Assembly: GCF_017348835.2 (NCBI RefSeq)
Contig: NZ_CP071375.1
Reading direction: 5' to 3' (one strand)
DNA length: 64,000 nucleotides
From: Escherichia coli
Lineage (GTDB): Bacteria > Pseudomonadota > Gammaproteobacteria > Enterobacterales > Enterobacteriaceae
Of this stretch, positions 5,976 to 63,858 are shown in pieces. Below the pieces are notes generated by a model that ran no database searches, was not told the origin of the DNA, and saw only the letters and a program-made list of their open reading frames with translations. Every line of letters starts with the position of its first letter. Position 1 is the stretch's first letter. The translations under genes were made by a program, and so were the position numbers.

Positions 5976-8900
5976 TCACTGGAAACAAGTAACCAGACCA
6001 GGTTTATTGGCTAACGTGATACAACAATCCTCTGTGCCAGTGCTCTCGTCCATCCCACACCGTTGAGAGGACAAGTAAGGGAAACTTGGCGAAGCTGGCC
6101 ATCCCAGCGAATTAAACACAGTATACAATGTCTCTAACTCATTGTATGTCGGTGCATTTTCTATATTTCCACACTGCTTCGAGATATCCCATTTGCTGGC
6201 ATCAGTAATATGCGCAGAAGCCCAGTTTTCGTAGTTAATAATCGGTGAGGATACGGGATTGGCCCCGGACGGTAATTCAGTTGTCAGTATCGGTCGATGT
6301 AATGTTTTTCCATTCACCACTGCCGTGTCTGCCATATGCCCCCAGAAGTGAGCAGAAGATACATTTGGGCTGGTCAATACGGTGAAAATAGTGTCCATCA
6401 TTGCAGTCACTGTTGGGTATTTATCCAGCGTTACCGTCAGCGGCATTTTATAACCCGGCGTATTGTCCTGACGAACAGTAAAGTTTGCCGTGCCGTCTGC
6501 CCCCGTCACGCCACTGATCTCGTTCCCACTAACCGCCAATAGGGTAGCCGCCCCCGATGATGGCTGGATGGTAATATCATCCATAGCCGCCACATCGCCA
6601 TATAGCGTCGCCCCACTATTACGCGGAGAGGCATCACCACGTCGCAGAGTAAACGCCACATTTGGCACAGGTTTCCCGGCGCTGTCTTTCACCGTCACGG
6701 TGACTGGCATTGCCTCGCCCTTCTTCACTTTCGCCGCCTGAGCGGTGGAGTCAAATGCCGTTGACGTCAGGGTGACGGTAGAAACCGTTGAGTGAGGGTG
6801 CACCAGGCACGCCTGGAAGGCGCGGCTTTTAGATACAGTCACAAGTTGACCTGTGTTGAAGTCAAATGATTCACAAGAATTCGCGCCCGCAGGACAATCT
6901 GCATTTGTCCACCACACATAGCTATTCTGTTTCACCGGCCAGCCAATCTCATTGACGATAGAGCCATTCGGATAGCGGTTGTATAAAGATTGAAGCTCAT
7001 CCAATGATGGATATCGTGCGCTTTCACAAGGGATAAGCTCCGGCAAATATCGCTGGGTAATATATGGCGCAGGCCAGCTTTCATTATTTATATTCACTTT
7101 AGTGAGCGAATAACCGCCACCGCTGGTTGCCCCCATTTCGGCCCACAGTTTCATCCGCTCAAACTGCGTTCCGTCTGCTGAGCTTACCGTTTCTGGCATA
7201 TGTCCCCAGAAGTTGGCTTTTGGCGTATCCGGGCTTGTTACTACGGTATACATCAGGTCGAGATCTGACTTTACCCCTGTTTCACGTGCAAGCGTCGCCG
7301 TAAACGGTGTTACCAGTCCCCAGGTATTATCCTGCGTAGCGGTTAACGTGATGATGCCATTACCGTCCGTAACCCCGTTCCAACTGGCGTTATCATCTGC
7401 AAATTTGTAATTGGCTTGCGCAACCGGCGTCAGGAACTGTAGCAGCAGATCATCTGCTGTCGAGCTTGTGAAATCACTCGGCGTGCGCACTTGTGCTGTC
7501 GCACGCGACAACCTGACGCTTTCATAGGCGGCAGGTCTGCCCGCATCATCCGTGACCTTGATAGTTAACGGTATTGATACGCCCTTCTTCGCCCATGCAG
7601 TCGGACGGTTGTCGTTGATGCCTGTTTTGTCCGCATTCAGCAACGTAGACGTCAACTCAATCGTCGTTGCCTCAGTGTGCGGGTCAACCAGGCAGAGCAT
7701 TAAATTGCCCGCCGTCGATGTTGTACTTTCGTTGCGGATAGCACCGCTCATCAGATCAAGCACCTGGTTATACCATGTTGAACTTGAAACAGTTTGGTCG
7801 TACGCCCACCAGTAATTACCTGCGTTAAGAGGCAGCCCCAAATCAGTTTCCAGCGCACCATTTGGATGGTCGTTGTAAAGCCCCATTAGCTCACTACTGA
7901 AGGGTTGATAAGGCGAAGTGCAGCCTGAGATCGAACTGTTCGCTTTGTTGGTTGCATCTGGTCGCGCCCAGTCTTCATTGTTGATATTAAAGGACGCAGT
8001 CCCGGACAACTCGGCCTTCAACTGTGGTCGCCTGAACGCGACGCCCGCGCTGCTGGTAAAGGTTTCCGGCATATGGCCCCAATAGTTAGCCTTCGGCGTA
8101 TCCGGGCTGGTGATCACTGTGAAAATCGCACTTAAAGATTGTGAAGCAATCGAACCATCGTCCAGTTTCGCCAACAACGGAATACGAACGCCATATCCTT
8201 TATGGAACTGATATACCGTCAACGTCGCCGTTCCGTCAGGCCCGGTAACACCATAAAAATCATCGCCCTCATTAATGATTGGCGTTTGATGATTGGATGA
8301 ATCCGTGATGTAAATTAATTTCGACTGGTAATCTGAACTTACTACATTCTGACGGCTAAGCGTCGCACCATGTTCCAGCAAGAAGGGTACATTACCCAGC
8401 AGATTTCCCTGCGCGTCGCGCGTTGTGACCTTAATGGTGATGAAATCATGATCAACTTCATAATTGGTTTTTGCTTTAACCCCCTGATTACCATCATAAA
8501 CCTGCGCTTGTTCAGAGGTTAACTCAATTGTGGCGACCTTCGGGTTAGCCGTTGTCTGGCAGGTTAAATACCCCCCTTTTGACTCCAGTACACTGCTGGT
8601 GCCATTACTCAGTTGCACACCAAGGTAATTACGATTACTTACGCTGGCACCATCGGCGGTGCTGGTGTCATAGACTTTTAATACTGGCCAGCCGTCTACA
8701 GCATGACCGCCCCAGCTTGTCGATAACGTGGTTAATGCATCTTTGGTCGGGATATTATCTGCGCCACAACCGTTATTTTTCGCATTCTTACTTGCCTGCG
8801 CTTCAGTAAACAGCGCCCAAATTTCGTTATCCTCTTCCGGGCTTTTACGTCCATTGCCGGGAGAACCACTCAGTTCTGAAAACAGGATCGGTCGCTTAAA

Positions 8901-11900
8901 CGTCAATCCTCCCGCTGTGAGTGTTTCTGGCATATGCCCCCACATTTTTGCCTTGTTAGTGTCAGGGCTGGTGACAACGGTAAAAATAGTGTCTAACGAT
9001 GCGTTTTTTGTTGGATCGGAATAGAGCGCAGCGGTAATTGCCGTTTTCGTGCCGTGAGTGTCCGGGCGGGTGATGGTGAGAATTTTGCTACCGTCACTCC
9101 CCGTTAACCCAGCGTATGCACTGGCAGTATCGTTAAGCGACATTTCATCTGACATTCCGGCATCCACCACGACCGGTGAAACGATCCCGTCACCGCTTCC
9201 TGCAATATGCTTTTCATTGCTACGGGTGTAACCATCGCCACGCTTCAGGGTAAAGGGCATTCCCGGCATCGGGTTACCCGCCGTATCTTTCACCGTGACT
9301 TTTACCTGTAGCGTTTCACCCTTTTTCAGTTTCGCTGCATTAAGCGTGCTATTCCACTGTGCCTGATCGACCACTTCCAGCGTAATGGTGCTGGCGGGTG
9401 GGTTAGCGTCCTTCAGGCAGGAGATATAAATTTCCGAGGAACTTGTTTGCACGTTTCCGTTATTCAGCCAAACCGCTGCAAAGTGCGGGACTTTATCGGT
9501 AGGCGTGCTACTCCAGTAAGGCTGGCGCTGAGTCGGCCAACCATGCTCAGTTTGAATCGCGTTATTACTGTTGGCGCGATAGAGCGCATCAAGCTGTGAC
9601 TGGCGTGGCACTTTATTGGCCTCACAACCGCCCACCGCGCTATTTTCGATCTCGGACTGATCGACGCGTAACCAGGTTTCATTATTTTCATCAAAGGGAC
9701 GCCCGGAACCGCTTACCTCCACCGCCAGTTTGGGGCGATTAAATGTAATAGAATCCACAGTTATCGTGTCATCCATGTGCCCCCACATTCTCGCTCCCAT
9801 CACATCCGGGCTGGTGGGAACCGTAAAGATTACATAGTAGTTAATGGTATTCGGCAGAACAGAATTAGGAGGCGTGACAACAAGTCGCGTTCTTAAGCCA
9901 ACGCCTTGTGGCTGCTCAACAACAACGGTTGCCTGCCCCTGTGCGTCTGTAATACCGGAGTAAACCATTGAGGATTGTGAGGTACCGTACTGCGTCCCAT
10001 TCAGGGTTATTGCGCCGTTACTGGGATCGGTAAACCCGGTTGCGCTTTCTTCACGGTCAAGACTGATATCTTTGGTAATAGTAAAAGCCGTGAACGGCAC
10101 CCGCTCGCCATTCAGAGCATTAACTGTGCGCACCGTCATGGTGATTTGTTCACCGACTTTCGCCCGTGCCAGGCTGCCCGAGGTAGTATCACGATCGGTT
10201 GTCACTTCAACCTTCGCCACCATCTCATTACCAGAGCACGAGAGATAGTTTTGTTTAAAACCGCTATAACTGTCGACGTTCCCTGTTCCGAGGTTTACCG
10301 ATGAATGCGTTGTCTGCTCCGCGGCAGTTAAATAGTCCTTTACTGCGGTTGGCCAGCCATACTCAGTCCCGATGATATTGCCAGGGTAAGCCGAATACAG
10401 ACTTTCCAGTGAGATCTCACGCGGTATATGCCCCGTGCCGCATTCTGCCTGCATACTGGTATTTTGATCGAATAACGCCCAGTCTTCGTTATTTTCCCGT
10501 ACTGTGCCTATTTCATGCGTGGTTTCAGCCGCCAGCAGCGGTCGTTTATATAAACTGCCAGCATCAATAATGCCGTGCATGTGGCCCCACATCCGCGCAT
10601 ATTCGCTGTCCGGACTGGTCACCACCGTAAAGACCACATCTTTGGCATCTTCAGCAGTGAAATTACTGCGCATTTTCGCCGTAATATGCGTTTTAACGCC
10701 TGCGCCGTCAGGCTGCGTCAGCAGCAGAGTTGCCTGACCATTGACGTCGGTCATTCCCTCATAATTATGATCATCTACCTTTTGCAGGTTGGTGCCGCCG
10801 GAAATTTGTACCGGATGCGCTTCCCACGCCGGATCGGTTTGATTTTTGCGGTTAACGCCGTCATCGAGATGCAGCGAGAAGTAGTAATAAGCCAGCGGCT
10901 GATTGTTATTTTTTTTATCGGTAATGGTCAGGCGTATCGTAGTGCTGTCACCGACCTCTGCCTTCGCGGCATTTATACTTTCATCAAAGTTACTGGGCGT
11001 GAGCACCAACTCTGGCTCAACATCGGGTTCTGCTTTATCCACACAGCTCACGATATACTTTGTACTGTCTGGTTTTTGCGCTTCGCTGCGGTTAGACACA
11101 TCAGCCGCGTGGTGCTGCCCGGTACTTCCTGCCAGAGATGACCAGTAATAATCACCCTGCATCGGCCAACCGGCGGTCTCCTGAATAGAGTTAGGGATCA
11201 CCGTAGCCAGCGCGCCAAACTGGCGCATGCCAGGCAAAATATCGCAGTGGTTATCTGCGCCACTCCAGGTGAAGGTCGACCAGGTTTCACCGTGATCGTT
11301 CACACTGCCATCTTCGTTATCAACTTCCGCCGCCAATTTCGGACGACTAAAGGTGTAATTCATGGCCGTCAGGGTTTCCGCCATATGGCCCCACATATTG
11401 GCCTGCGGGGCATCCGGGCTGGTGAGTACAGTAAATATCACCGCCGTTTCACTGGTTTGCGAGATGCCAGAAAGGCTGACCACCAGCGGCGTTTTGACAC
11501 CTGGACCATTGGGCTGCGTCACCGTGACGGTAGCTGCGCCATCAGCATTAGTCGTGCCCCGATACTCCGTTGCTGTGGTGGTGAGTTCAGTGGTATCAAG
11601 ATTGACAGGTGAGGTGTTATTCACCACTCCCTGGCGGTTTTCAGCATCTTTTCGTTTGATAACAAAAGGGATATTGCTCGCAATATTACCTTCACAATCT
11701 TGGGTGGTTACGGTTAAGGTGATTGAACCATCGACAGTAGTCTTTGCCGCTTGTAACGTATCGTCATAGCCACTGGCGCTAATTGTCACCAGGTCGCCCT
11801 GGGCGGGAGCAATATTCAGCGTCACTTTATGTTCAGCCAACGGCACCGTCCCCTGATTAGGCACACCAGTTAACGTGTAGAGGTAGAGTAAAGGTAGCGC

Positions 11901-12386
11901 TTCCTGCTCATTGATTCGCGGCCACGCCACCAAAGAACGCCCTGCCAGATTCTGCGCGCAGAAAGAGCGGTCCGGGCGCGGTTGTGGGCTGAGCGGCGTA
12001 TCTGGCGTCGCGGCATCCGTCCACACAAGAGATACAGCAGGAGGCGTCTGGTTTTGCCAGCCTAGCACGGGGGGATTAGAAAAAAGATCGCCTTCAGGAT
12101 CGTGAGGGTTAACCAGAATCATTCTCGCCGCTGTGTCATCAACACTGAATGCGCTGGGTTTTACAGATGCCTGAATGTCGTAGGTTTTGCTCGGATCAAG
12201 CTGAACGCTTCCCTGATAAACGGGTACGCTGGCGCTCTCTGCCCCGGGCACTGTGCCATTGATTGCGTCGGTCGAGATGCCAGTTTGTTGCCACTGGCCA
12301 CCTTTTAATACTGCCCCAACCTGAAAAGAGAGGAAGAGCAGAAAAACCGCCGTTATCGCTTTTATCAGTTTCAAAGTCCCGTCCAT
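5976..12386 (-). CDS. ratA: Giant repetitive secreted surface protein with seven Ig-like modules (RatA-like, CS54-island type)
   Basis: 2136-aa ORF with N-terminal signal peptide; an approx. 290-aa module recurs seven times, each ending in a T-V-(V/L)-T-S-P-D ... (M/F/Y)-W-G-H-M signature. Position next to sinI/sinH between xseA and yfgJ matches the Salmonella CS54 island. Confidence 0.7.
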
Positions 12387-12520: not shown

Positions 12521-12620
12521 TGCCGGATGCGGCGTTAACGCCTTATCCGACCTACAAAATCGTGCAAATTCAATACATTGCAGGAACCATGTAGGCCTGA
12601 TAAGCGAAGCACATCAGGCA
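12521..12620. repeat. REP elements (BIME-like pair)
   Basis: tgccggatgcggcgttaacgccttatccgacctac and inverted partner gtaggcctgataagcg...catcaggca match the E. coli REP consensus. Confidence 0.5.
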
Positions 12621-12676: not shown

Positions 12677-13642
12677 TTATTTTCTCTGGTAATCGATGGA
12701 CAAACCGTAGCCCTGAACACCATCCGCGCCAAGGGTGAGGCCACCTTCGCTGTAGTCGAACGCAGTTTTCGCTTCGGCGTTGGTAACTGGGATAACCAGG
12801 TCGCTGTTGTTGTAGCTCGGGTTGACAATCCCACCGTTGGTACGCAGTTGCAGACTGGTACCGGTAAAGCGCCAGCGGTAGTTGTACTGGCTGGTAACCT
12901 CTTCGCCAGTGTCGTAGGAGCCGTTGCTGTTTTTATCTTTCCACAGCATGACCTGATAAGTGGTATTGGTTTTGAGTTTGGTTTCTTTGCCCAGCAGGTT
13001 GGTGTTAACACCCTGCTCATGAATGACAACTTTAACCGCATCGTCAAATACCGGACCTTCCGGAATATCATCGCTGTCAGAACCACCGCCCGCGTTGGTG
13101 GAGAGGTCTAACAGGATCAGTTGTTCTGCAACGTTAGGATCACCGGTCGTGGTGGTCGGGGTAATTTTCAAACCGATGTAGCGATCGGCATCCGCTGCGG
13201 CAATGGTATAGGTGTCACTGCCCGTTGTACCGATCTCTTTCGGATCACCCCCCGCCTGGTCGCTATAGCTCATCCATTGCAGCGTCGCTTTGGTTGCAGT
13301 GTTGTTGTCGTCAAGGTCGCCCTGGGTATCGCCAATGGCCCAGTTTGCAGTTAACTTGTCACCAATATGAAATTGCTTCTCGCCATCGGTTGAAGCAGAA
13401 CGTCCGCCACGATCAACGGTAATGGACACATGAGATTTATCGGCATCAGTCGTTTCTGACGCGCTACGGGTGATCCACGGCACGGTACCCTGAATCGTTC
13501 CGGTCGTTTGCGTCTCTGACTGCCACTGGCCCGCTCTAAGGTTGCCCTGCCCTTCTGCCATGGCGGCAGGCACTGCGCAGTACCCCGCTAAAGCCAGCGC
13601 CAGCGCGACTTTAGTCATCGGTCGCTTTAAATAGTGTTTCAT
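12677..13642 (-). CDS. sinI: Secreted protein, SinI-like (CS54-island type)
   Basis: 321-aa ORF with signal peptide MKHYLKRPMTKVALALALAGYCAVPAAMA; C-terminal approx. 90 aa are homologous to the C-terminus of the adjacent SinH-like protein. Confidence 0.6.
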   Translation of the reverse strand: MKHYLKRPMTKVALALALAGYCAVPAAMAEGQGNLRAGQWQSETQTTGTIQGTVPWITRSASETTDADKSHVSITVDRGGRSASTDGEKQFHIGDKLTANWAIGDTQGDLDDNNTATKATLQWMSYSDQAGGDPKEIGTTGSDTYTIAAADADRYIGLKITPTTTTGDPNVAEQLILLDLSTNAGGGSDSDDIPEGPVFDDAVKVVIHEQGVNTNLLGKETKLKTNTTYQVMLWKDKNSNGSYDTGEEVTSQYNYRWRFTGTSLQLRTNGGIVNPSYNNSDLVIPVTNAEAKTAFDYSEGGLTLGADGVQGYGLSIDYQRK

Positions 13643-15878: not shown

Positions 15879-16087
15879 GTTTTTCCCTGTGAAAATTTAA
15901 TTCTGAAATAATGTCTAATATTGTATTCCAGATAGCACAGGAACTGCACTCCATAAGTGCTAAATATAATCTTAAAATTATAAGAATGTGACTTTACACA
16001 TTTTTAATTAGTCGTTAATCTAATAGGAAAGAGATTATAATATTTATATTAGGAATATATAATGTGAAATCATATATTCCAGTGATA

Positions 16088-16303
16088 TTAAACAATGACA
16101 AATTCAATACGGGTTTTAGAAATTAAACCGTGACCATGCAGGCAGAAATAATCCACCGCACCACACGCTTTTAATACCTGCAACGGTTGGTGGCAGTCAG
16201 GACAAAGAGCCTGGACTATGAAATCTTTGTTACACGTTGCGCAGTGAGTAGCCTCGCCATTACGTTCGAGAGGGTTTTGGCAGATTGGGCAGCTGAGTTC
16301 CAT
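16088..16303 (-). CDS. yfgJ: Small zinc-ribbon protein YfgJ
   Basis: 71-aa ORF with two CxxC pairs (CPICQ...CATC; CPDC...CLHGH); conserved position upstream of der. Confidence 0.8.
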   Translation of the reverse strand: MELSCPICQNPLERNGEATHCATCNKDFIVQALCPDCHQPLQVLKACGAVDYFCLHGHGLISKTRIEFVIV

Positions 16304-16365: not shown

Positions 16366-17838
16366 TTACTTACTTTTCTTGATATGCTTCATCAGGCGCT
16401 TACGCTTGCGCATCTGGGTCGGCGTCAGGGTGTTACGCTTATTCGCATACGGGTTTTCCCCTTCTTTGAACTGAATACGAATCGGCGTCCCCATCACATC
16501 CAGAGACTTGCGGAAATAGTTCATCAGATAACGCTTGTAGGAATCCGGCAGGTCTTTTACCTGGTTACCGTGAATCACCACAATCGGCGGGTTATAGCCA
16601 CCTGCGTGAGCATACTTCAGCTTCACACGACGACCACGTACCAGCGGCGGCTGGTGATCTTCAACTGCCATGGTCATAATACGTGTCAGCATAGACGTTC
16701 CCACACGACGGGTGGAGCTGTCATACGCTTCACGTACTGATTCAAACAAGTTACCAACACCACTGCCGTGCAAGGCAGAGATAAAGTGCACACGAGCAAA
16801 ATCGATAAAGCCCAGACGGAAGTCCAGCGTTTCTTTCACCTGCTCTTTCACTTCCTGACTCAGGCCATCCCACTTATTCACCACAATGACAAGTGAGCGC
16901 CCACTATTGAGAATAAAGCCCAGCAGCGAGAGATCCTGATCGGAAATACCTTCGCGCGCATCAATCACTAACATCACCACGTTGGCATCTTCAATGGCCT
17001 GCAACGTTTTGATTACGGAGAATTTCTCTACAGCATCGGTGATTTTGCCGCGTTTACGTACGCCAGCGGTGTCAATGAGCACATACTCACGTCCATCGCG
17101 TTCCATTGGGATGTAGATGCTGTCACGCGTCGTGCCAGGCATGTCGTAAACAACAACGCGCTCTTCACCAAGAATACGGTTAGTGAGTGTAGACTTACCT
17201 ACGTTCGGACGACCCACAATCGCCAGTTTGATCGGCAGACTTTGCGGGTCGAAGTCGTCTTCCTCTTCTTCTTCGCCGTTCTCTTCCGCTTCAAATTGCG
17301 CCCAGTATTCAGCGTCTTCGTCGACTTCCTCTTGCGGTGCGAGATCTTCCATCCACGGCAGCAGCACATGCTCCAGCAGACTTAATACGCCACGACCGTG
17401 AGACGCGGCGATCGGGTAGATTTCACCTAAACCAAGCGAGTAGAAATCAACCACTGCCTGATCGGGATCCAGACCGTCAGTTTTGTTTGCCACCAGGAAG
17501 GTCGGTTTTTCACGGGAGCGCAGATGTTTGGCAATCGCTTCATCTGCCGGCATCAGGCCCGCGCGCGCATCCACCATAAACAGTACGACGTCCGCTTCTT
17601 CAATCGCCAGCAGCGACTGTTCCGCCATGCGGGTTTCTACACCGTCTTCTGTGCCATCAATCCCGCCGGTATCAATACAGATAAACTCACGGCCTTCAAT
17701 TTCCGCACGACCGTACTTACGGTCACGAGTCAGACCCGGGAAATCCGCAACCAGCGCATCTCGGGTGCGAGTTAGACGGTTAAATAACGTGGATTTTCCT
17801 ACGTTAGGGCGCCCGACAAGCGCGACCACAGGTACCAT
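16366..17838 (-). CDS. der: Ribosome-associated GTPase Der (EngA), two GTPase domains
   Basis: ORF track 16366..17877; start trimmed to [22 protein letters not shown] (490 aa) with GAGG Shine-Dalgarno 8 nt upstream; two G1 motifs GRPNVGKS. Confidence 0.93.
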
Positions 17839-17955
17839 GTTTAAAGCCTCATTTTTATAAATCATCAGACAACGCACGCTATATTCGCGTCGTTGTTAAA
17901 AACAGGAAAACGGCCCCTGTCCAGGAGCCGTTTTCAAAGTGAACGACAGAGACGA

Positions 17956-25486: not shown

Positions 25487-26341
25487 TTATGGTGTTCTCA
25501 TCCCATAGCGATGACGTTGGCAATAAAGACAATTTTGCGCATTTTGCTGAAAAGTAAGAAAGGATTTTTGACAGGTTTTACAGACTTTGCGATTAGCATG
25601 AAGATTCACAATTTTTGCCGGTAGAATCGTCAATTCAACGGTCATTGCCTGATGAAAACAAACAGCAATACAATTTTGGCATCCGTTACACAAGGCATCA
25701 TTTATTTGTAAATGGCCTTCGTTAAGCGAAAAGACCTGTTGCTCGCAGGCCCGCCAGCATGCACCGCAAAGCTGACACTTTTGAGGATCCATCATCGGGC
25801 GAGCATCACTAATCTGGGGCCAAAAATAATGTAACCGACGTAATCCTGGTTGTATTTGTGTCATCTGAACATCCGCACGCTGCACATGGAACAAACGACG
25901 CCGGGAAACATTCACCTCACTGGTATGTGGAGATACCACAGACCAGCCTTCCTCGCCATATTGCCGTAAGCGTTCGTTTAACAGCAATAATGCGCGCTCC
26001 CATGCCTTCGCCTGACTCAGATCAATCGCGATCGCTGTGATCCCCTGCTCTTTATGCCATAGCAAAAGTTCTTCCAGCGTCGGCGCAATAGTGGTGAAAG
26101 GTGCGACCAGGGTGTGATTGCGAAAATAACGTAAAGGGGAATTAACGCCACGAATAGCCTCTTGCGGGCAAATAAACTGGCAAACCGCACACTCAATACA
26201 TTGTTCCGCGTCGACCGCTACGCCCTCTTCTGTCAGCGTTAGCGCCTGTGCCGGGCAAGCCTCGACACAGGCATGACATGTTGCAAAACGAAAGCGTTGG
26301 CGCGCGCATTCCGCGCCAATCGTTATGTTATGACTTAACAT
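25487..26341 (-). CDS. Poly-ferredoxin-like protein ([4Fe-4S] CxxCxxCxxxC motifs plus C-terminal CxxC...CxxC), last gene of the Dms-like operon
   Basis: 284-aa ORF with CIECAVCQFICP, CQLCGACWRAC, CNGCQNCIAVC and CKTC...CLYC; stop/start overlap with the upstream gene at 26341. Confidence 0.6.
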   Translation of the reverse strand: MLSHNITIGAECARQRFRFATCHACVEACPAQALTLTEEGVAVDAEQCIECAVCQFICPQEAIRGVNSPLRYFRNHTLVAPFTTIAPTLEELLLWHKEQGITAIAIDLSQAKAWERALLLLNERLRQYGEEGWSVVSPHTSEVNVSRRRLFHVQRADVQMTQIQPGLRRLHYFWPQISDARPMMDPQKCQLCGACWRACEQQVFSLNEGHLQINDALCNGCQNCIAVCFHQAMTVELTILPAKIVNLHANRKVCKTCQKSFLTFQQNAQNCLYCQRHRYGMRTP

Positions 26342-27162
26342 TAGCCGATACTAAAAAAGACAAAACGCAGCATAACTTCACTCCCCACTAGCATTACGCT
26401 ACCGAATAACGCCGCCGGGATATTCTTTTTACAACCACCGACAGCAAAGAACATCATCCCAATGACGGAAATTCCCCAGCTTAGTGTCAGTATGGGTTTT
26501 AACTGTCCCAGCATCGCTAATGGCGCATGTGGCAATGTGGCTATCTGCATCGCATTTGCCGTTAAATCCCCTATCCACAACGGCTGAACCAACAAGCGCA
26601 ACAGAACCAGGAGAGCGATCACCAATACGCATCCATTACGCAGGGCATCAATCTGCGGCAAAATTCCGCTAATACGAAACACGGCTACCAGCGCTGAACC
26701 GAGAATTCCCACTGTACCTAAGAACATAATCAGCGTGTTGTAATGCTGCCAGGTGATAATCGACGTATGGATGTAAACTTGCGCCATGCAGAAAACATCA
26801 ACAATCCCGACCACTGCCGCTAGCATAAGCAGGAGTTGCCAGCCGCCTTTGCGTAACATGACCAGTAATGTGGATAAACCCAATAGCGCCAGATACAGCG
26901 TACCAAAGATAATTTCCCGACTCAGCCATGAACTGGAAAAGTGACTTAGCGCATGCATCGCATTAAGTGGATAACCCAGGTGTAAGGTAGAAATCAGTAA
27001 CCCTACGGCCCCTGCCAAAAAAGCCAACAGTAATGGCGGCCGCATAACCGGGCGGGCGCTGGAGGTGATTAAAATATGACGATGAAGAAACGCCAGCCAC
27101 AGCGTCATACCGACCGATGCCTGTAACAACAGCGTAAAAGCCATTAACGGTAATTCATGCAT
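26341..27162 (-). CDS. DmsC-family membrane anchor subunit of a DMSO-reductase-type enzyme
   Basis: 273-aa polytopic membrane protein; N-terminus MHELPLMAFTLLLQ resembles the DmsC/YnfH start; overlaps the B-subunit stop by 8 nt. Confidence 0.65.
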   Translation of the reverse strand: MHELPLMAFTLLLQASVGMTLWLAFLHRHILITSSARPVMRPPLLLAFLAGAVGLLISTLHLGYPLNAMHALSHFSSSWLSREIIFGTLYLALLGLSTLLVMLRKGGWQLLLMLAAVVGIVDVFCMAQVYIHTSIITWQHYNTLIMFLGTVGILGSALVAVFRISGILPQIDALRNGCVLVIALLVLLRLLVQPLWIGDLTANAMQIATLPHAPLAMLGQLKPILTLSWGISVIGMMFFAVGGCKKNIPAALFGSVMLVGSEVMLRFVFFSIG

Positions 27163-27784
27163 GATGTGACGCCTCCTTTTCCGCGCCCTGATGCGGTTTA
27201 ATCACCAGATTTGGCTGCGTAATCGACGAATCAGGTAAACCTTTCACATCACTGACATCGCCATACTTTTCACGCAACTCATCAATAGGGCCGAACTTAA
27301 TCGCCCCCAACGGGCACGTTGCCACGCAAATGGGTTGTTCTCCTTTAGCTTGCAGATCAATACAGAAATCGCATTTCGACATCTGCCCGGTCTGCTCATT
27401 CATTTGCGGTGCGCCGTAAGGACAGGACCATGCGCAGTAACCGCAACCGACGCACTTATCAGTATTCACGCGCACAATACCGTCTCCGGGACGCTTATGC
27501 ATCGCCATCGTCGGGCAATTTTTGGTACAGATCGGATCCGCGCAATGGTTACAGGAAACAGAAAGGGTATAAGCAAAGACATTATGACTCACACCGCCCT
27601 CTCCAGTGGCGATAAAGCCACCGCCGTTCACTTCATACACGCGGCGAAAACGTCGCCCAACCTCAAGGTTGTTTTTGTCTTTACAGGCCACCTGACACGC
27701 TTTACAGCCAGAACAACGCGAAGAGTCAATAAAGAACCCTAATTGTTTGTCGCTGACAGATGCAAATTCTTTAAATTGGCTCAT
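27155..27784 (-). CDS. DmsB-family four-cluster [4Fe-4S] ferredoxin subunit
   Basis: 209-aa ORF with four Cys-cluster motifs (CKACQVAC, CNHCADPIC, CVGCGYCAWSC, CDFC...C); overlaps the A-subunit stop by 4 nt. Confidence 0.8.
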   Translation of the reverse strand: MSQFKEFASVSDKQLGFFIDSSRCSGCKACQVACKDKNNLEVGRRFRRVYEVNGGGFIATGEGGVSHNVFAYTLSVSCNHCADPICTKNCPTMAMHKRPGDGIVRVNTDKCVGCGYCAWSCPYGAPQMNEQTGQMSKCDFCIDLQAKGEQPICVATCPLGAIKFGPIDELREKYGDVSDVKGLPDSSITQPNLVIKPHQGAEKEASHHA

Positions 27785-30162
27785 GCTTTCTCAACCTCCA
27801 CCAGCATTGTTTGATGTGAATTCCCTTTCGCCAGCGCCGTAATGCGGGTCGAACTCAGTACATTGGCGCAGCCTCCGCGATCAATACCTTGTGCATCCGG
27901 TTGCCACCATGCCCCCGCCTGCATAGCAACTACGCCAGGGATGATACGGGGGGTTATTTCCACCGGGATAATGCTCACACCACGATCGTTATAAATTTTT
28001 ACGCTATCTCCTTCGACAATCCCGCGCTGTTTTGCATCTTGCGGATTCAGCCAGAGTTTTTGCGTCTGAACTTCTTGCAGCCACGGGTTAGCATACTGGG
28101 TGGAATTAGCACGGTTTTTCCCTTTCCAGGTGATGAGCTGCAACGGGTATTTCGCCGTCAGTTTATCTTCTGGCCCTTCAAAGGCAGGGACATAGTGCGA
28201 AAGCGCGGGAATTTCTGGATCTTGCATATCAAAAAGACGCTTAGAGAAGATCTCAATTTTGCCGGAAGGCGTCGGGAAAGGATTATTCTGCGGATCGCGA
28301 ATATTTGCTTCGAAAGCGATGTGCGGCGCGCTTTTGAAAAGATGTCGACGTGTTTTTTGCAGGGTCGCGAAGTCCGGCAAATTTTCATCCGGCATCGCCA
28401 GACGAGTTTGCTCCCAGATATGCTCGATCCATTGCTTCTCATCACGTCCTTGACTGAACTCGGCTTCGACACCCAGTTTTTTCGCCACGTCACGCAACCA
28501 GTCATAATCGGTGCGACGTTCAAACTCCGGCTCAATCAGTTTTTCTGACAGAATGAGATAGCTCGCCGTTCCCCATGTTTCGCCGATATTCCAGCGTTCC
28601 ATAAAGCTGGTTTCCGGCAGCAACACATCGGCATATTTCGCGCTCGGAGTCATGAACAGATCGCTGAGTACGATGAATTCTATTTTAGATTCGTCTTCAA
28701 GGAGCTTCGCGGCCTGGTGGACGTCCGGGTTCTGGTTCGCCAGATAATTACCTGCCAGTGAGAACAGCAGGCGGATATTACTGTCGAGTTTATCGACACC
28801 TTTAAGCCCATCTTGTGGCGTAACTTTAGAAGCATCATCCGCCGCCTGCATCCAGTTCATAATCGAGATTTTCGCTTGTACCGGATTTTCTGGCATATCT
28901 GGTCCAACGCAGAATTTACGATTAGAACTACCGCCATAACCTGCCGCCCAGCCACCTTTGATGCCGACGTTACCGGTAATCGAGGCCAGTAAAGTTGAAC
29001 CTCGGGCGGTGCGTTCGCCGCAAATATGTCGCTGCGGTCCCCATCCCTGAATCAACGCTGCGGGTTTCGTGTTGGCGTAATCACGGGCCAGTTGACGAAT
29101 AGTTTGCGCTGGAACGTGGGTAATTTTTTCTGCCCATTCCGGCGTTTTGTGTATCCCATCTTTTGCGCCAAAAAGGTAGGCAACCAACGATTCGTTGGCT
29201 GGTACGCCTTCCGGCATGGAGTTTTCATCAAAACCGAGAGTATATGTGTCGATAAATGTCTTATCATGGAGATTCTCGCTGATAATGACGTACATCATCG
29301 CGTCCATCAACGCATTGTCCGTGGTCGGCAACAGCGGGATCCACTGATCGGCAAGTGAAGATACGGTGTCGGAATAGCGCGGATCCACCACGATAAAACG
29401 TGTACCGTTTTGCTTCATTTTTTGAAAATAGTAATTGGTGTGACCGAATATGGTTTCCGTTGGGTTATGCCCCCAGAGAATCACCAGTTTGGTATCCAGA
29501 AGAGTATCCATCGAGTTACCGCTCGCGGCCACGCCATACGTGTAAGGCGTGGCCGCCGCAGTATTACCCAGACTAACTGAGTGATAATATTCAAGATAAC
29601 CACCGGTTAAATTTAACAGCCGACGCGCCATCGCATCGCCAGAAAATGTTCCACCAGAAACAGCCGTCCCGACATGGACATAACGTGAAGCCGGGCCATA
29701 TTGTTGCGTGATCCTTTTCAGGTTATCGGCAATTAAGGTCGTCGCCTCATCCCATGAAATACGCTCAAATTTCCCCTCGCCCCGTTTACCGACCCGTTTC
29801 ATCGGATATTTCAGGCGGTCTGGATGATAAACAAATTTACGATAGCCGCGACCACGAACACAGGCGCGCATAATCGGCATTTGTGGATCCAATTCGTTAT
29901 CGGGAAGCGTGGTAATTTGCGTCACCACACCGTCGCACATATGCGCCCGAATATCGCACTTACCACCGCAGTCAAATGTGCTACAGGTGGGCACGACTTT
30001 ATCAGCTACTGGAGCTGTAACTTCTGGCGACGCATCTGGGGATTGCGCCTTTGCGGTAGAAGAAATAAAAGGCAAAGTGATAAGCGCGGAAGTCGCTTGT
30101 AAAAAACTACGTCGTGATACTTGCGGAAATGTAATGCGTTCCTTTTCGTCTGGCGTATCCAT
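27781..30162 (-). CDS. Tat-exported molybdopterin oxidoreductase catalytic subunit (DMSO reductase family, DmsA/YnfE-like)
   Basis: 793-aa ORF with twin-arginine signal (SRRSFLQATSAL...AKA) and an N-terminal Cys cluster (CSTFDCGGKCDIRAHMCDG) typical of the FS0-binding region. Confidence 0.85.
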   Translation of the reverse strand: MDTPDEKERITFPQVSRRSFLQATSALITLPFISSTAKAQSPDASPEVTAPVADKVVPTCSTFDCGGKCDIRAHMCDGVVTQITTLPDNELDPQMPIMRACVRGRGYRKFVYHPDRLKYPMKRVGKRGEGKFERISWDEATTLIADNLKRITQQYGPASRYVHVGTAVSGGTFSGDAMARRLLNLTGGYLEYYHSVSLGNTAAATPYTYGVAASGNSMDTLLDTKLVILWGHNPTETIFGHTNYYFQKMKQNGTRFIVVDPRYSDTVSSLADQWIPLLPTTDNALMDAMMYVIISENLHDKTFIDTYTLGFDENSMPEGVPANESLVAYLFGAKDGIHKTPEWAEKITHVPAQTIRQLARDYANTKPAALIQGWGPQRHICGERTARGSTLLASITGNVGIKGGWAAGYGGSSNRKFCVGPDMPENPVQAKISIMNWMQAADDASKVTPQDGLKGVDKLDSNIRLLFSLAGNYLANQNPDVHQAAKLLEDESKIEFIVLSDLFMTPSAKYADVLLPETSFMERWNIGETWGTASYLILSEKLIEPEFERRTDYDWLRDVAKKLGVEAEFSQGRDEKQWIEHIWEQTRLAMPDENLPDFATLQKTRRHLFKSAPHIAFEANIRDPQNNPFPTPSGKIEIFSKRLFDMQDPEIPALSHYVPAFEGPEDKLTAKYPLQLITWKGKNRANSTQYANPWLQEVQTQKLWLNPQDAKQRGIVEGDSVKIYNDRGVSIIPVEITPRIIPGVVAMQAGAWWQPDAQGIDRGGCANVLSSTRITALAKGNSHQTMLVEVEKA

Positions 30163-30217
30163 CTTGCGTTCCCGAAAATGAAAAAATAAATATTCACGTA
30201 TTTATTCGAGAACAATG

Positions 30218-30231
30218 CTGATAACAATCAA
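30218..30231. promoter_or_regulatory. Candidate FNR/CRP-family box upstream of the Dms-like operon
   Basis: cTGATaacaATCAA matches the FNR consensus TTGAT-N4-ATCAA at 9 of 10 positions, centred about 62 bp upstream of the A-subunit start codon in an AT-rich spacer. Confidence 0.3.
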
Positions 30232-30325
30232 ATAATTAGTCGTTTAAAAAAACGTGAGATTATTAAATTATTAATGTATTCCAAATATAAATGCCATAAT
30301 TAGATTAATAAATATTTTGTATATT

Positions 30326-38698: not shown

Positions 38699-38994
38699 TG
38701 CTGGTCTGGTTCGCGGCCTTTCCAGCAGGTTGACTTGTGTTGCCGGAGCAACGCAGGCACCCCACAGTGTTGAAATACTCTCTTTTATGCCTGGCTGTGT
38801 CAAGATAATAAACAGAGTAATTATTCAAACATGAGAGTATTATTCTTAATGGCCCTTTTCGCCGTCTCGCAAACGGGCGATGGCTTTAGGAAAGGATGTT
38901 CCATGACCGTAAATACAGGCACCCCACAGTGCTTGCTATCGCGGCAATATCGCCAGTGGTGCTGTCGTGATGCGGTCTTCGCATGGACCGCACA

Positions 38995-39120
38995 ATGAAG
39001 ATACGGTGCTTCTGTATCGTACTTATTGTTTCTGGTGCGCTGTTAACCGAGGTAAATAATAACCTGAGTCTCTCCGGCGACAATTTACTGGTGGTTAACA
39101 ACCTTCAGAGCAGCAAGTAA
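38995..39120 (+). CDS. Small hydrophobic protein, candidate type I toxin (RyfA/TimP-like), copy 1
   Basis: 41-codon ORF MKIRCFCIVLIVSGALLTEVNNNLSLSGDNLLVVNNLQSSK followed directly by a terminator; an in-frame ATG 12 nt upstream is an alternative start. Confidence 0.45.
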   Translation: MKIRCFCIVLIVSGALLTEVNNNLSLSGDNLLVVNNLQSSK

Positions 39121-39152
39121 GCCCGAATGCCGCCCTTTGGGGCGGCATATTT
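39121..39152 (+). terminator. Rho-independent terminator of toxin transcript 1
   Basis: gcccgaatgccgccctttggggcggcat followed by attttag. Confidence 0.5.
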
Positions 39153-39156
39153 TAGA

Positions 39157-39351: not shown

Positions 39352-39907
39352 CAAAAAACCGCCAAAATCAGGCGGTTATTTGTTGCCGGTTTGGTTCGCG
39401 GCCTCTCCAGCAGGTTGTATTACCGTAGTAATGCAAGCGCGTCTCAGCGGAGACAATACTCGCCAGTAACTCTCTTTTTGTCAAGTAAAAGAGAGTTATT
39501 ATTGTTCTGTTAGTGTATTATCCACTGCGGCCCTTTCCGCCGTCTCGCAAGCGGGCGCTGGCTTAAGGAAAGGATGTTCCGCGACCGTTAGAGCAAGCGC
39601 GTCTCAGCGCTTGCTATCGCGGCAATATCGCCAGTGGTGCTGTCGTGATGCGGTCTTCGCATGGACCGCACAATGAAGATACGGTGCTTCTGTATCGTAC
39701 TTATTGTTTCTGGTGCGCTGTTAACCGAGGTAAATAATAACCTGAGTCTCTCCGGAAACAATTTACTGGTGGTTAACAACCTTCAGAACAGCAGGTAAGC
39801 CCGAATGCCGCCCTTTGGGGCGGCATATTTTAGATTATCCGGTTCTGTTTAAAGTCACGCAAAAAACCACCCCAGCGACGTTCATAGAACGGCGCAATAT
39901 GTTCGGT
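39352..39907. repeat. Tandem repeat unit 2 of the ryfA-type small-toxin locus (approx. 556 bp)
   Basis: Begins with a terminator-like hairpin aaaaaaccgccaaaatcaggcgg and runs into the real sseB 3' end. Confidence 0.7.
39673..39798 (+). CDS. Small hydrophobic protein, candidate type I toxin (RyfA/TimP-like), copy 2
   Basis: 41-codon ORF MKIRCFCIVLIVSGALLTEVNNNLSLSGNNLLVVNNLQNSR; three substitutions relative to copy 1. Confidence 0.45.
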   Translation: MKIRCFCIVLIVSGALLTEVNNNLSLSGNNLLVVNNLQNSR

Positions 39908-62322: not shown

Positions 62323-62346
62323 CTTCAGGTTCCTCGGTAAAATTCA

Positions 62347-63858
62347 TCAATGCACAGACAGAATGGCGGACATCAGCTCATCCACATTGACCGGAGCGTG
62401 AAACTCCTGCGAGAACGTGCCGTGCTGTAATAACAGGATGCGGTCACACACCAGCGGCAACTCCTCCACTTCACTGGAGATAAACACCACGCTTTTTCCT
62501 TCGGCAGCCAGCTCACGGACAATACGGTAAATCTGCTGTTTGGCTTCGATATCGACGCCGCGCGTTGGCTCGTCGAGCAACAAAATCTGGCTGGCGGCAT
62601 AGACCCAACGACCGATCACTACTTTTTGCTGATTGCCGCCAGAAAGCGTGCCGATGGGCGTTTCGCTACTGGCGGCCTTGACCGTCATCCGCTGCATCAC
62701 TTCTTCGGTCAGGCGGCGGATGGTGGACCATTGCAGCACACCGTTGGCGCTGATTTTTTGCCGATTGGTCAGCACTGTATTTTCGTCAACGCCCAACCAG
62801 GGAATGATCCCCGCTTCTTTGCGGTTTTCTGGCGTATAGCCAATGCCGCGTTTCAGCATGTCGCCGTAATCGGGGCGCGTGATTTTCTCGCCGTTGATAA
62901 CAATTTCGCCCTGTTCATACGTCTCCAGCCCAACAATCGCCTTCAGCAATTCACTGCGCCCTGCCCCCAGCAGACCAGCAATGCCGAGCACTTCGCCACG
63001 ACGTAGCGTAAAACTGATATCCTCCAGCTTGGGCTTATGGCGTAACGCACGGACTTCCAGCACGGCCTGATCCACAATTTCCTGAGGTGCAACCGGCGCA
63101 ATATCAACGTGATCGCGCCCTAGCATTAGCGACACAATATGATGCGTGGAAGTGTTTTCGAGCATCACATCGCCAGCCACCTGCCCGTCGCGCATAACGG
63201 TGGCACAGGAGGCAATGCGGCGAATTTCTTCCATCCGGTGGCTGACATAAATCACCGCCACGCCCAGTGCCGACATCTTTTTCACCGCGCTGATCACCAG
63301 TTCAACTTCCGCACTGGCAAGCGAACTGGTAGGTTCATCAAGAATGACCACGCGCGGCTCGCCCTTCATCACCCGCGCAATTTCCACCAGCTGCTTTTGC
63401 GCCGGGCTTAGTGTTGAAACAAGTTGTTCAGGACTAACGTCAACGCCCAACGCCTGTAAGCAACGTTGGGCATCCTGCGCCATTTGCAGGTAATCAATCA
63501 TGCCGTTGCGGCGGGGCCACTGACCGAGGCAGAGGTTTTCCGCCACCGTCAGCCCTTCCACCAGACTTAACTCCTGATAAACCGCGCGTACCCCCAGTTC
63601 AGCGGCACGGCGAGTCAGCGTAGCTTCGTCGCCTTCCAGTCGCGTCTCGCCAATCCAGATATCACCGCTATCCGGACGTTCGCTACCGGTAAGCATTCGA
63701 ATGAGGGTCGATTTGCCCGCGCCGTTTTTGCCTAACAGCGCACGAACTTCGCCTTTATTGAGCGTGAAGTTAACGTTATCCAACGCAACGACGCCGGGAT
63801 AACGCTTATTTCCTGCCACCACTTTTGCTACCGGGACTGCCTCTGTTGCCGTGAACAT
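62347..63858 (-). CDS. yphE: ABC sugar transporter ATP-binding protein YphE (two ATPase domains)
   Basis: 503-aa ORF with two Walker A motifs (GKNGAGKS; GLLGAGRS) and LSGGNQQK signature. Confidence 0.88.
   Translation of the reverse strand: MFTATEAVPVAKVVAGNKRYPGVVALDNVNFTLNKGEVRALLGKNGAGKSTLIRMLTGSERPDSGDIWIGETRLEGDEATLTRRAAELGVRAVYQELSLVEGLTVAENLCLGQWPRRNGMIDYLQMAQDAQRCLQALGVDVSPEQLVSTLSPAQKQLVEIARVMKGEPRVVILDEPTSSLASAEVELVISAVKKMSALGVAVIYVSHRMEEIRRIASCATVMRDGQVAGDVMLENTSTHHIVSLMLGRDHVDIAPVAPQEIVDQAVLEVRALRHKPKLEDISFTLRRGEVLGIAGLLGAGRSELLKAIVGLETYEQGEIVINGEKITRPDYGDMLKRGIGYTPENRKEAGIIPWLGVDENTVLTNRQKISANGVLQWSTIRRLTEEVMQRMTVKAASSETPIGTLSGGNQQKVVIGRWVYAASQILLLDEPTRGVDIEAKQQIYRIVRELAAEGKSVVFISSEVEELPLVCDRILLLQHGTFSQEFHAPVNVDELMSAILSVH

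Follow-up and report, generated by a model that had tools for sequence, protein, structure and literature searches.

The very AT-rich spacer upstream of sinH in Escherichia coli as a putative H-NS-bound and LeuO-responsive control region

SinH is a fitness factor of ExPEC and a vaccine candidate (PMC9937491), and sinH is reportedly up-regulated during human UTI, as cited in the same article. In strain SMS-3-5, the corresponding protein, IatB, was undetectable in LB or M9 at 28, 37, and 42 degrees C (Goh et al. 2019, PMC6714894). Screening of approximately 30,000 transposon mutants carrying an iatB-lacZ fusion yielded 12 up-mutants, and all 12 insertions were positioned to drive leuO; no hns insertion was recovered in this up-regulation screen (PMC6714894). 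Supplying LeuO from a plasmid increased the iatB transcript approximately 15-fold in SMS-3-5, with the protein still undetectable (PMC6714894). As IatB was not detected despite overexpression of LeuO, another layer of control exists. A report of sinH derepression in an hns mutant was not found in our literature search.

Occupancy data are available for the UPEC strain CFT073, for which H-NS and StpA were mapped by ChIP-seq (Hustmyer et al. 2022, PMC9765446, Data set S1 sheet 1E) and expressed as per-gene averages on a scale of 0-1 with a cut-off of 0.07. For sinH, values of 0.116 (H-NS) and 0.100 (StpA) were obtained, and the gene was bound in the wild type and also upon mutation of either rfaH or stpA (PMC9765446). 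The highest H-NS value at the locus, 0.407, was that of c3032 (216 nt), together with a StpA value of 0.367 (PMC9765446). According to the CFT073 annotation, c3032 is the zinc-ribbon gene located directly upstream of the 208-bp, 24.5% GC spacer that precedes sinH. This gene kept its bound score when hns, or both hns and stpA, were mutated, and the class still bound in hns stpA was ascribed by the authors to highest-affinity sites held by the paralogue Hfp (PMC9765446). In genome order, the list of H-NS-bound genes reads c3022, yfgG, yfgH, sinH, c3032, and yphF (PMC9765446), from which it follows that sinI, the giant adhesin gene, xseA, and der were not scored as bound; poorly read-covered genes were excluded from that study, which could apply to the repeat-rich adhesin gene. 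More generally, AT content was found to be the best predictor of H-NS binding, Salmonella genes bound by H-NS were AT-rich along their whole length, and not all AT-rich promoters were regulated by H-NS (Lucchini 2006).

The stretch of E. coli DNA analysed here, which will be referred to as the window, comprises 64,000 nucleotides and shows 2 mismatches in 64 kb to E. coli PE164 (pig, China). It contains a sinH island with the following genes and neighbours:

5976-12386, minus strand: RatA-like giant repeat adhesin gene, 2136 aa, the last gene of the island
12677-13642, minus strand: sinI, the partner protein gene downstream of sinH (NCBIfam partner_SinI, 419.8 bits)
[quoted passage not shown]
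15879-16087, minus strand: yfgJ-sinH intergenic spacer, the putative sinH regulatory/promoter region, 209 bp, 24.9% GC
16088-16303, minus strand: yfgJ-like zinc-ribbon gene, 71 aa, homologue of CFT073 c3032, directly upstream of the spacer
16366-17877: der, followed by the yfgJ-like zinc-ribbon gene

The bounds of the spacer are exact, extending from the stop codon of the zinc-ribbon ORF to the ATG of sinH, with both genes on the minus strand. The sinH product matched NCBIfam NF033423 (inverse_SinH equivalog) over its full length with 1481 bits compared to a cut-off of 999, and the gene is annotated as sinH in strain PE164. For the RatA-like gene, NCBIfam PRK15316 gave 3237 bits, which is below the curated cut-off, and the annotation in PE164 is 'adhesion domain-containing protein'. 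A match to the sRNA ES036 (CssrF) covering the full 43-nt model (Rfam 52.4 bits, gathering score 37.6) was located at 12556-12598 on the plus strand; it falls within the 290 bp that separate sinI from the RatA-like gene and is oriented against the operon.

Outside the island, several further features of the window were observed. Two full copies of the ryfA RNA are present at 38849-39153 and 39527-39831 on the plus strand (317 and 311 bits) and enclose a match to IS128 RNA; the annotation here also includes two small-toxin genes, timP, and a partial pseudogene of sseB. The toxin/sRNA locus is thus present as a tandem duplication, compared to a single copy in K-12 and CFT073. The first position of the window falls within a tyrosine recombinase/integrase gene (1-952) with an adjacent spacer of 35.9% GC (953-1256). 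In PE164, a hypothetical gene and one for a LuxR-family regulator come after the integrase gene, and this cluster adjoins guaA; as it is without counterpart in the K-12 region, another island borders guaA. At ~62325-63858, the PE164 annotation gives yphE, which encodes the ATP-binding protein of a sugar ABC transporter, as a pseudogene with a frameshift.

A preliminary description of this DNA had characterised the 209 bp upstream of sinH as far more AT-rich than the flanking core genes, with several A/T tracts. The base composition clearly bears out the AT-richness: the spacer has a GC content of 24.9% compared to 52.1% for the whole window, the lowest value of any 209-bp window (23.4%) is reached at 15895-16103, and a GC content equal to or below that of the spacer occurs in only 0.06% of all 209-bp windows. 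The GC trough is sharp, with 20% at 15950-16100 and values of 44-50% again within 100 bp on each side. The flanking genes are core-like only on the yfgJ/der side, as sinH, which forms the other flank, is accessory. The window has 28 annotated intergenic regions measuring 50 bp or more, with a mean GC content of 44.4%, and only the sinH spacer and the region 30163-30325 fall below 30%; the next lowest after these two outliers has 34.8%. The region 30163-30325 (163 bp, 22.1% GC), the only other extremely AT-rich spacer of the window, precedes a four-gene operon of the DMSO/selenate-reductase family (~25487-30162, minus strand), which is inserted between ndk and pbpC relative to K-12. Like the sinH island, this operon is an accessory cluster whose promoter region is very AT-rich.

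The A/T tracts are no more frequent than the base composition predicts. Four runs of at least four A or T were observed in the spacer compared to 5.0 expected from composition, and 31 TpA steps compared to 29.5, so that, by these counts, the tracts appear to contribute nothing beyond AT-richness. Exact TATAAT hexamers are enriched, with five on both strands compared to 1.2-1.5 expected (P ~0.01), and promoter-dense AT-rich DNA is the kind known to be covered by H-NS. The sequence tCGATAAATT, which is reportedly a high-affinity nucleation motif for H-NS, has 76 matches in the window when up to 2 mismatches are allowed, none of which lies in 15879-16087. The genes of the island are of native and not foreign base composition, with 48.1% GC for sinH, 53.4% for sinI, and 51.2% for the RatA-like gene, and 44-58% for 300-bp windows across the island. 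Measured against the properties of H-NS targets, the spacer is thus markedly more AT-rich than the genome and the sinH spacer locus belongs to accessory, horizontally exchanged DNA, but AT-richness does not extend through regulatory and structural regions (Lucchini 2006), the bodies of sinH, sinI, and the RatA-like gene not being AT-rich.

For comparison, 21 yfgJ-sinH spacers were collected from E. coli, E. whittamii, E. albertii, cryptic Escherichia, Salmonella, Citrobacter, Pseudocitrobacter, and Superficieibacter. The compared spacers are 192-234 bp long with 22-31% GC, compared to 47-55% GC in the sinH coding regions. The main Salmonella spacer type has 345 bp and 34% GC overall because of approximately 100 bp of GC-rich sequence after yfgJ. 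This extra sequence is REP-like and lies directly after yfgJ (positions 2156-2260 of locus L031 in our set), and the Escherichia spacers are without it. The conservation of length and composition across several genera argues for a maintained regulatory feature rather than mere donor composition. The window spacer is ~63% identical to that of CFT073 and ~64% to that of SMS-3-5. Relative to the B2-type allele, it is 64% identical (distal half 59%, proximal half 68%), and the four-fold degenerate sites of sinH are 47.5% identical in the same comparison. The following elements were recognised in the spacer:

16052-16080, minus strand: AT-rich 12-bp hairpin (inverted repeat) right after the yfgJ stop, a possible weak terminator
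16040-16058, no strand assigned: candidate LeuO-core-like palindrome ATATTCC-N5-TAAATAT, matching ATATTCA-N5-TGAATAT at 12/14 positions
15960-15977, minus strand: conserved 18-nt block TTTTAAGATTATATTTAG (consensus TTTTAGGAATTYATTTAG), found by cross-lineage comparison
15920-15925, minus strand: predicted -10 hexamer TACAAT, 34 nt downstream of the 18-nt block
15884-15888, minus strand: Shine-Dalgarno-like AGGGA, 5 nt before the sinH ATG

What is new here is the conservation across genera, as judged by comparative analysis, of spacer length and composition together with three predicted elements, namely the palindrome, the 18-nt block, and the -10 hexamer. The 18-nt block showed 128/162 identities to nine distant lineages (shuffle mean 111.6, shuffle maximum 118) and is the sole site in the window at up to 3 mismatches. 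It is located ~80-85 nt before the sinH ATG in most loci, Salmonella included, and is also found in Citrobacter, Pseudocitrobacter, and other Escherichia. A hexamer of the TAnAAT type follows 33-34 nt downstream of the block in ~15/19 loci. The comparative analysis revealed no recognisable -35 at the conserved TACAAT -10, and transcription of sinH is predicted to start near 15913. The Shine-Dalgarno-like element is kept as CACAGGGAAA in the Escherichia alleles. A generic sigma-70 scan (-10/-35) yielded 2 sites in the spacer compared to 2.5 expected; the matches at 16068-16039 and 15992-15963 did not exceed chance, the second one moreover not being conserved as a -10 in other genera. The 18-nt block was compared by eye with the consensus sequences of a sigma-E -35, an RcsAB-box, and an Lrp site, and none of these assignments is proposed, as the resemblance was partial and inconsistent across lineages.

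The palindrome lies ~136 bp upstream of the predicted transcription start. The core ATATTCA-N5-TGAATAT used for comparison was reconstructed here from the K-12 cas and leuO regulatory regions, guided by the description in PMC6698644. The 12/14 match in the window has a probability of P = 0.003 relative to shuffles of the spacer, the pattern being AT-rich like its surroundings. In 13/16 lineages compared, the palindrome is located 140-177 nt before the ATG, and that of Citrobacter MGH106 matches the core at 14/14 positions. Summed over the 16 lineages, the score amounted to 170 compared to 141.6 +/- 3.3 for shuffles (maximum 153) and 144.6 +/- 7.0 for control palindromes with a permuted half-site (best 161). 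No good LeuO-core-like palindrome was detected at the equivalent position in Salmonella, where the best match is 8/14.

The hairpin at the end of yfgJ has a predicted fold of -12.5 kcal/mol (z = -3.2) and overlaps the LeuO-like palindrome; no T-run follows, and the terminator scan called no intrinsic terminator after yfgJ. No RNA family reached the Rfam gathering score in the spacer, a permissive search giving only a meaningless 9.7-bit match. Five small ORFs of 20-50 aa overlap the spacer, none of which was supported. Good folding was predicted for the 82 nt that precede the sinH ATG (z = -4.0). A leader RNA or anti-Shine-Dalgarno structure is nevertheless not proposed, as folding 8 Escherichia alleles to a consensus gave a weak structure (-5.4 kcal/mol with 2 compensatory pairs), which extends across the predicted -10.

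The spacer together with sinH is present in 1742/5426 complete E. coli genomes. The allele of the window was found with at least 99% identity in 43-44 genomes, and most sinH-bearing genomes carry the B2-type allele (~76%). The spacer is missing in K-12, in which xseA and yfgJ share 4 nt at their stop codons. K-12-type genomes align to the window only from 16087 rightwards, which together with the xseA/yfgJ overlap demonstrates that the whole 209 bp are confined to sinH-bearing genomes. Outside the island, the window is 98-100% identical to K-12. The tract diverging from K-12 is wider than the island, reaching from ~5000 inside xseA to ~16700 inside der: identity drops from 95% to 77% at the 3′ end of xseA, amounts to 57-79% for yfgJ DNA and to 88-93% for the last ~330 bp of der, and is 99-100% in the flanks of the tract. 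The closest SinH proteins are those of cryptic-clade Escherichia, E. sp. E1V33 (99%) and E. whittamii (97%). The gradation of the divergent flanks into 99-100% identity with K-12 and the relationship of SinH to the cryptic clade suggest that the segment was imported by homologous recombination of its flanks from a divergent Escherichia lineage. The yfgJ zinc-ribbon gene always adjoins sinH across the genera examined and diverges in step with it. The allele in the window is highly divergent, its product being 64% identical in amino acids to K-12 YfgJ, compared to 99% for E1V33, 81% for B2-type E. coli, and 58-71% for other genera. By these comparisons, yfgJ does not behave like an ordinary core gene but like a component of the variable segment.

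Published data on related strains make it likely that H-NS binds this spacer. It had been proposed as a probable target of H-NS, to be checked against ChIP data, and both sinH (0.116) and c3032 (0.407) are bound above the cut-off of 0.07 in the CFT073 homologue; these values refer to a homologous allele with a spacer ~63% identical, and on the other side the window spacer contains no high-affinity motif. Silencing of the island under laboratory conditions, which had also been anticipated, agrees with the silent and LeuO-induced iatB of SMS-3-5 but does not extend readily to the island as a whole, as sinI and the giant adhesin gene are missing from the CFT073 list of bound genes. The term xenogeneic overstates the case because the genes have native composition, H-NS is not found on sinI and the adhesin gene, and the spacer is conserved across genera.

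We consider it probable, though well short of certain, that the spacer is the control region of the sinH-sinI(-ratA-like) operon, occupied by H-NS and StpA, with LeuO acting as counter-silencer. The operon would be transcribed from a predicted weak sigma-70 promoter with a good TACAAT -10, no -35, and the 18-nt block, embedded in ~200 bp of 75-80% AT DNA. H-NS and StpA, the occupancy of which was demonstrated in CFT073, would hold transcription low in ordinary culture. LeuO, which was demonstrated to induce transcription in SMS-3-5, would open the promoter, probably via the predicted site at the 16040-16058 palindrome; alternatively, another host-induced factor might do so by acting at the 18-nt block. 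Judging from the CFT073 bound-gene list, binding of H-NS would be local to the spacer and its immediate flanks and not island-wide. The native GC content of the island and the unbound sinI and adhesin gene argue for such promoter-local binding and against classic silencing of AT-rich foreign genes. Speaking against this explanation, the CFT073 sinH occupancy of 0.116 is barely above the cut-off of 0.07, and occupancy alone is not repression.

The main rival to silencing by H-NS is a promoter limited by its activator, either LeuO at the palindrome or another factor at the block, on which H-NS occupancy would be incidental to the AT-richness and exert little control. Such a promoter would be consistent with the missing -35, with a conserved block of constant spacing that is placed like a class I activator site or an UP element, and with a LeuO-core-like palindrome conserved in position. 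The SMS-3-5 screen, which gave only leuO-activating insertions and no hns insertion (PMC6714894), and the observation that H-NS does not regulate all AT-rich promoters (Lucchini 2006) point in the same direction. However, H-NS and StpA are physically present on the CFT073 locus, with a high signal next to the spacer (PMC9765446). We regard an activator-limited promoter with idle H-NS as rather unlikely. The missing hns insertions in a colour screen are weak evidence, because hns mutants grow poorly and StpA could partly compensate.

The remaining two alternatives would deprive the spacer of a role in sinH control or assign its AT-richness to the history of the island. That the low GC content merely reflects GC-to-AT mutation bias in unconstrained DNA, or a terminator/insulator for the der-yfgJ transcript, might be read from the strong divergence of the spacer between alleles (~63% identity), from A/T tracts and TpA steps at composition expectation, and from the AT-rich hairpin after the yfgJ stop codon. 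Yet this hairpin lacks a T-run and was not called by the terminator scan, the mean GC content of other intergenic regions in this genome is 44%, and spacer identity (64%) exceeds that of the sinH four-fold degenerate sites (47.5%). Moreover, spacer length, low GC content, and the three elements have been retained in Escherichia, Salmonella, Citrobacter, Pseudocitrobacter, and Superficieibacter, so that we think an absence of regulatory meaning very improbable. The spacer is located exactly at the boundary with K-12-type sequence, as would be expected for the integration scar or attachment site of a mobile island at an AT-rich junction, but the island has no integrase, tRNA gene, or flanking direct repeat, and the same junction, spacer, and yfgJ neighbour recur in several genera. 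As the divergent tract from within xseA to within der also fits homologous exchange and not site-specific insertion, we give an integration scar hardly any credence.

Returning to a spacer controlled by H-NS/StpA and LeuO, this extremely AT-rich promoter region is of a well-understood, known type, and existing data largely explain it. A compact AT-rich module occupied by H-NS/StpA and responsive to LeuO would account for the absence of SinH in laboratory culture, and the comparison provides precise candidate sites in the form of the palindrome (16040-16058), the block (15960-15977), and the -10 (15920-15925). Binding of H-NS at sinH would then not depend on a compositionally foreign island. 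It is conceivable, albeit tentative, that the 18-nt block is the site of a chromosomally conserved putative activator that switches on SinH in the host. If this holds true, the LeuO-like palindrome ~80 bp further upstream would serve to clear H-NS, and sinH would represent a two-step switch of counter-silencing followed by activation, making the in-vivo signal for a vaccine-candidate adhesin directly testable.

The gene fdeC (eaeH), encoding an E. coli inverse autotransporter, is reportedly regulated by H-NS and temperature (Easton et al. 2014); its product belongs to the same protein family as SinH, and it occupies a different locus. The cas (casA) and leuO promoters of K-12 are AT-rich, silenced by H-NS, and activated by LeuO, being silent in culture and induced by ectopic LeuO (PMC6698644). 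The window palindrome resembles, at 12/14 positions, the ATATTCA-N5-TGAATAT common to the cas and leuO regulatory regions. LeuO and H-NS have been footprinted at both K-12 loci (PMC6698644), whereas the sinH site is predicted from the sequence. The sinH locus of Salmonella enterica, on a CS54-type island, shares the order yfgJ-sinH-sinI-adhesin with the window, and its spacer has an AT-rich core of 12-24% GC in which the block TTTTAGGAATATATTTAG is located 82 nt before the ATG and a TATAAT 33 nt downstream of the block. It differs by its 345-bp spacer with ~100 bp of GC-rich sequence after yfgJ and by a palindrome of 8/14 at best. CFT073 carries the B2-type allele, the spacer of which shares 63% identity with that of the window, and its locus is undiscussed in PMC9765446; the gene order is the same, however, and the spacer has 208 bp and 24.5% GC. 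The iatB locus of SMS-3-5 represents a different allele with ~64% spacer identity and a degenerate 18-nt block. Nevertheless, it agrees with the window in the succession of der, the zinc-ribbon gene, a 209-bp spacer, sinH, sinI, and the giant adhesin gene, and its spacer likewise combines 24% GC with a TACAAT -10.
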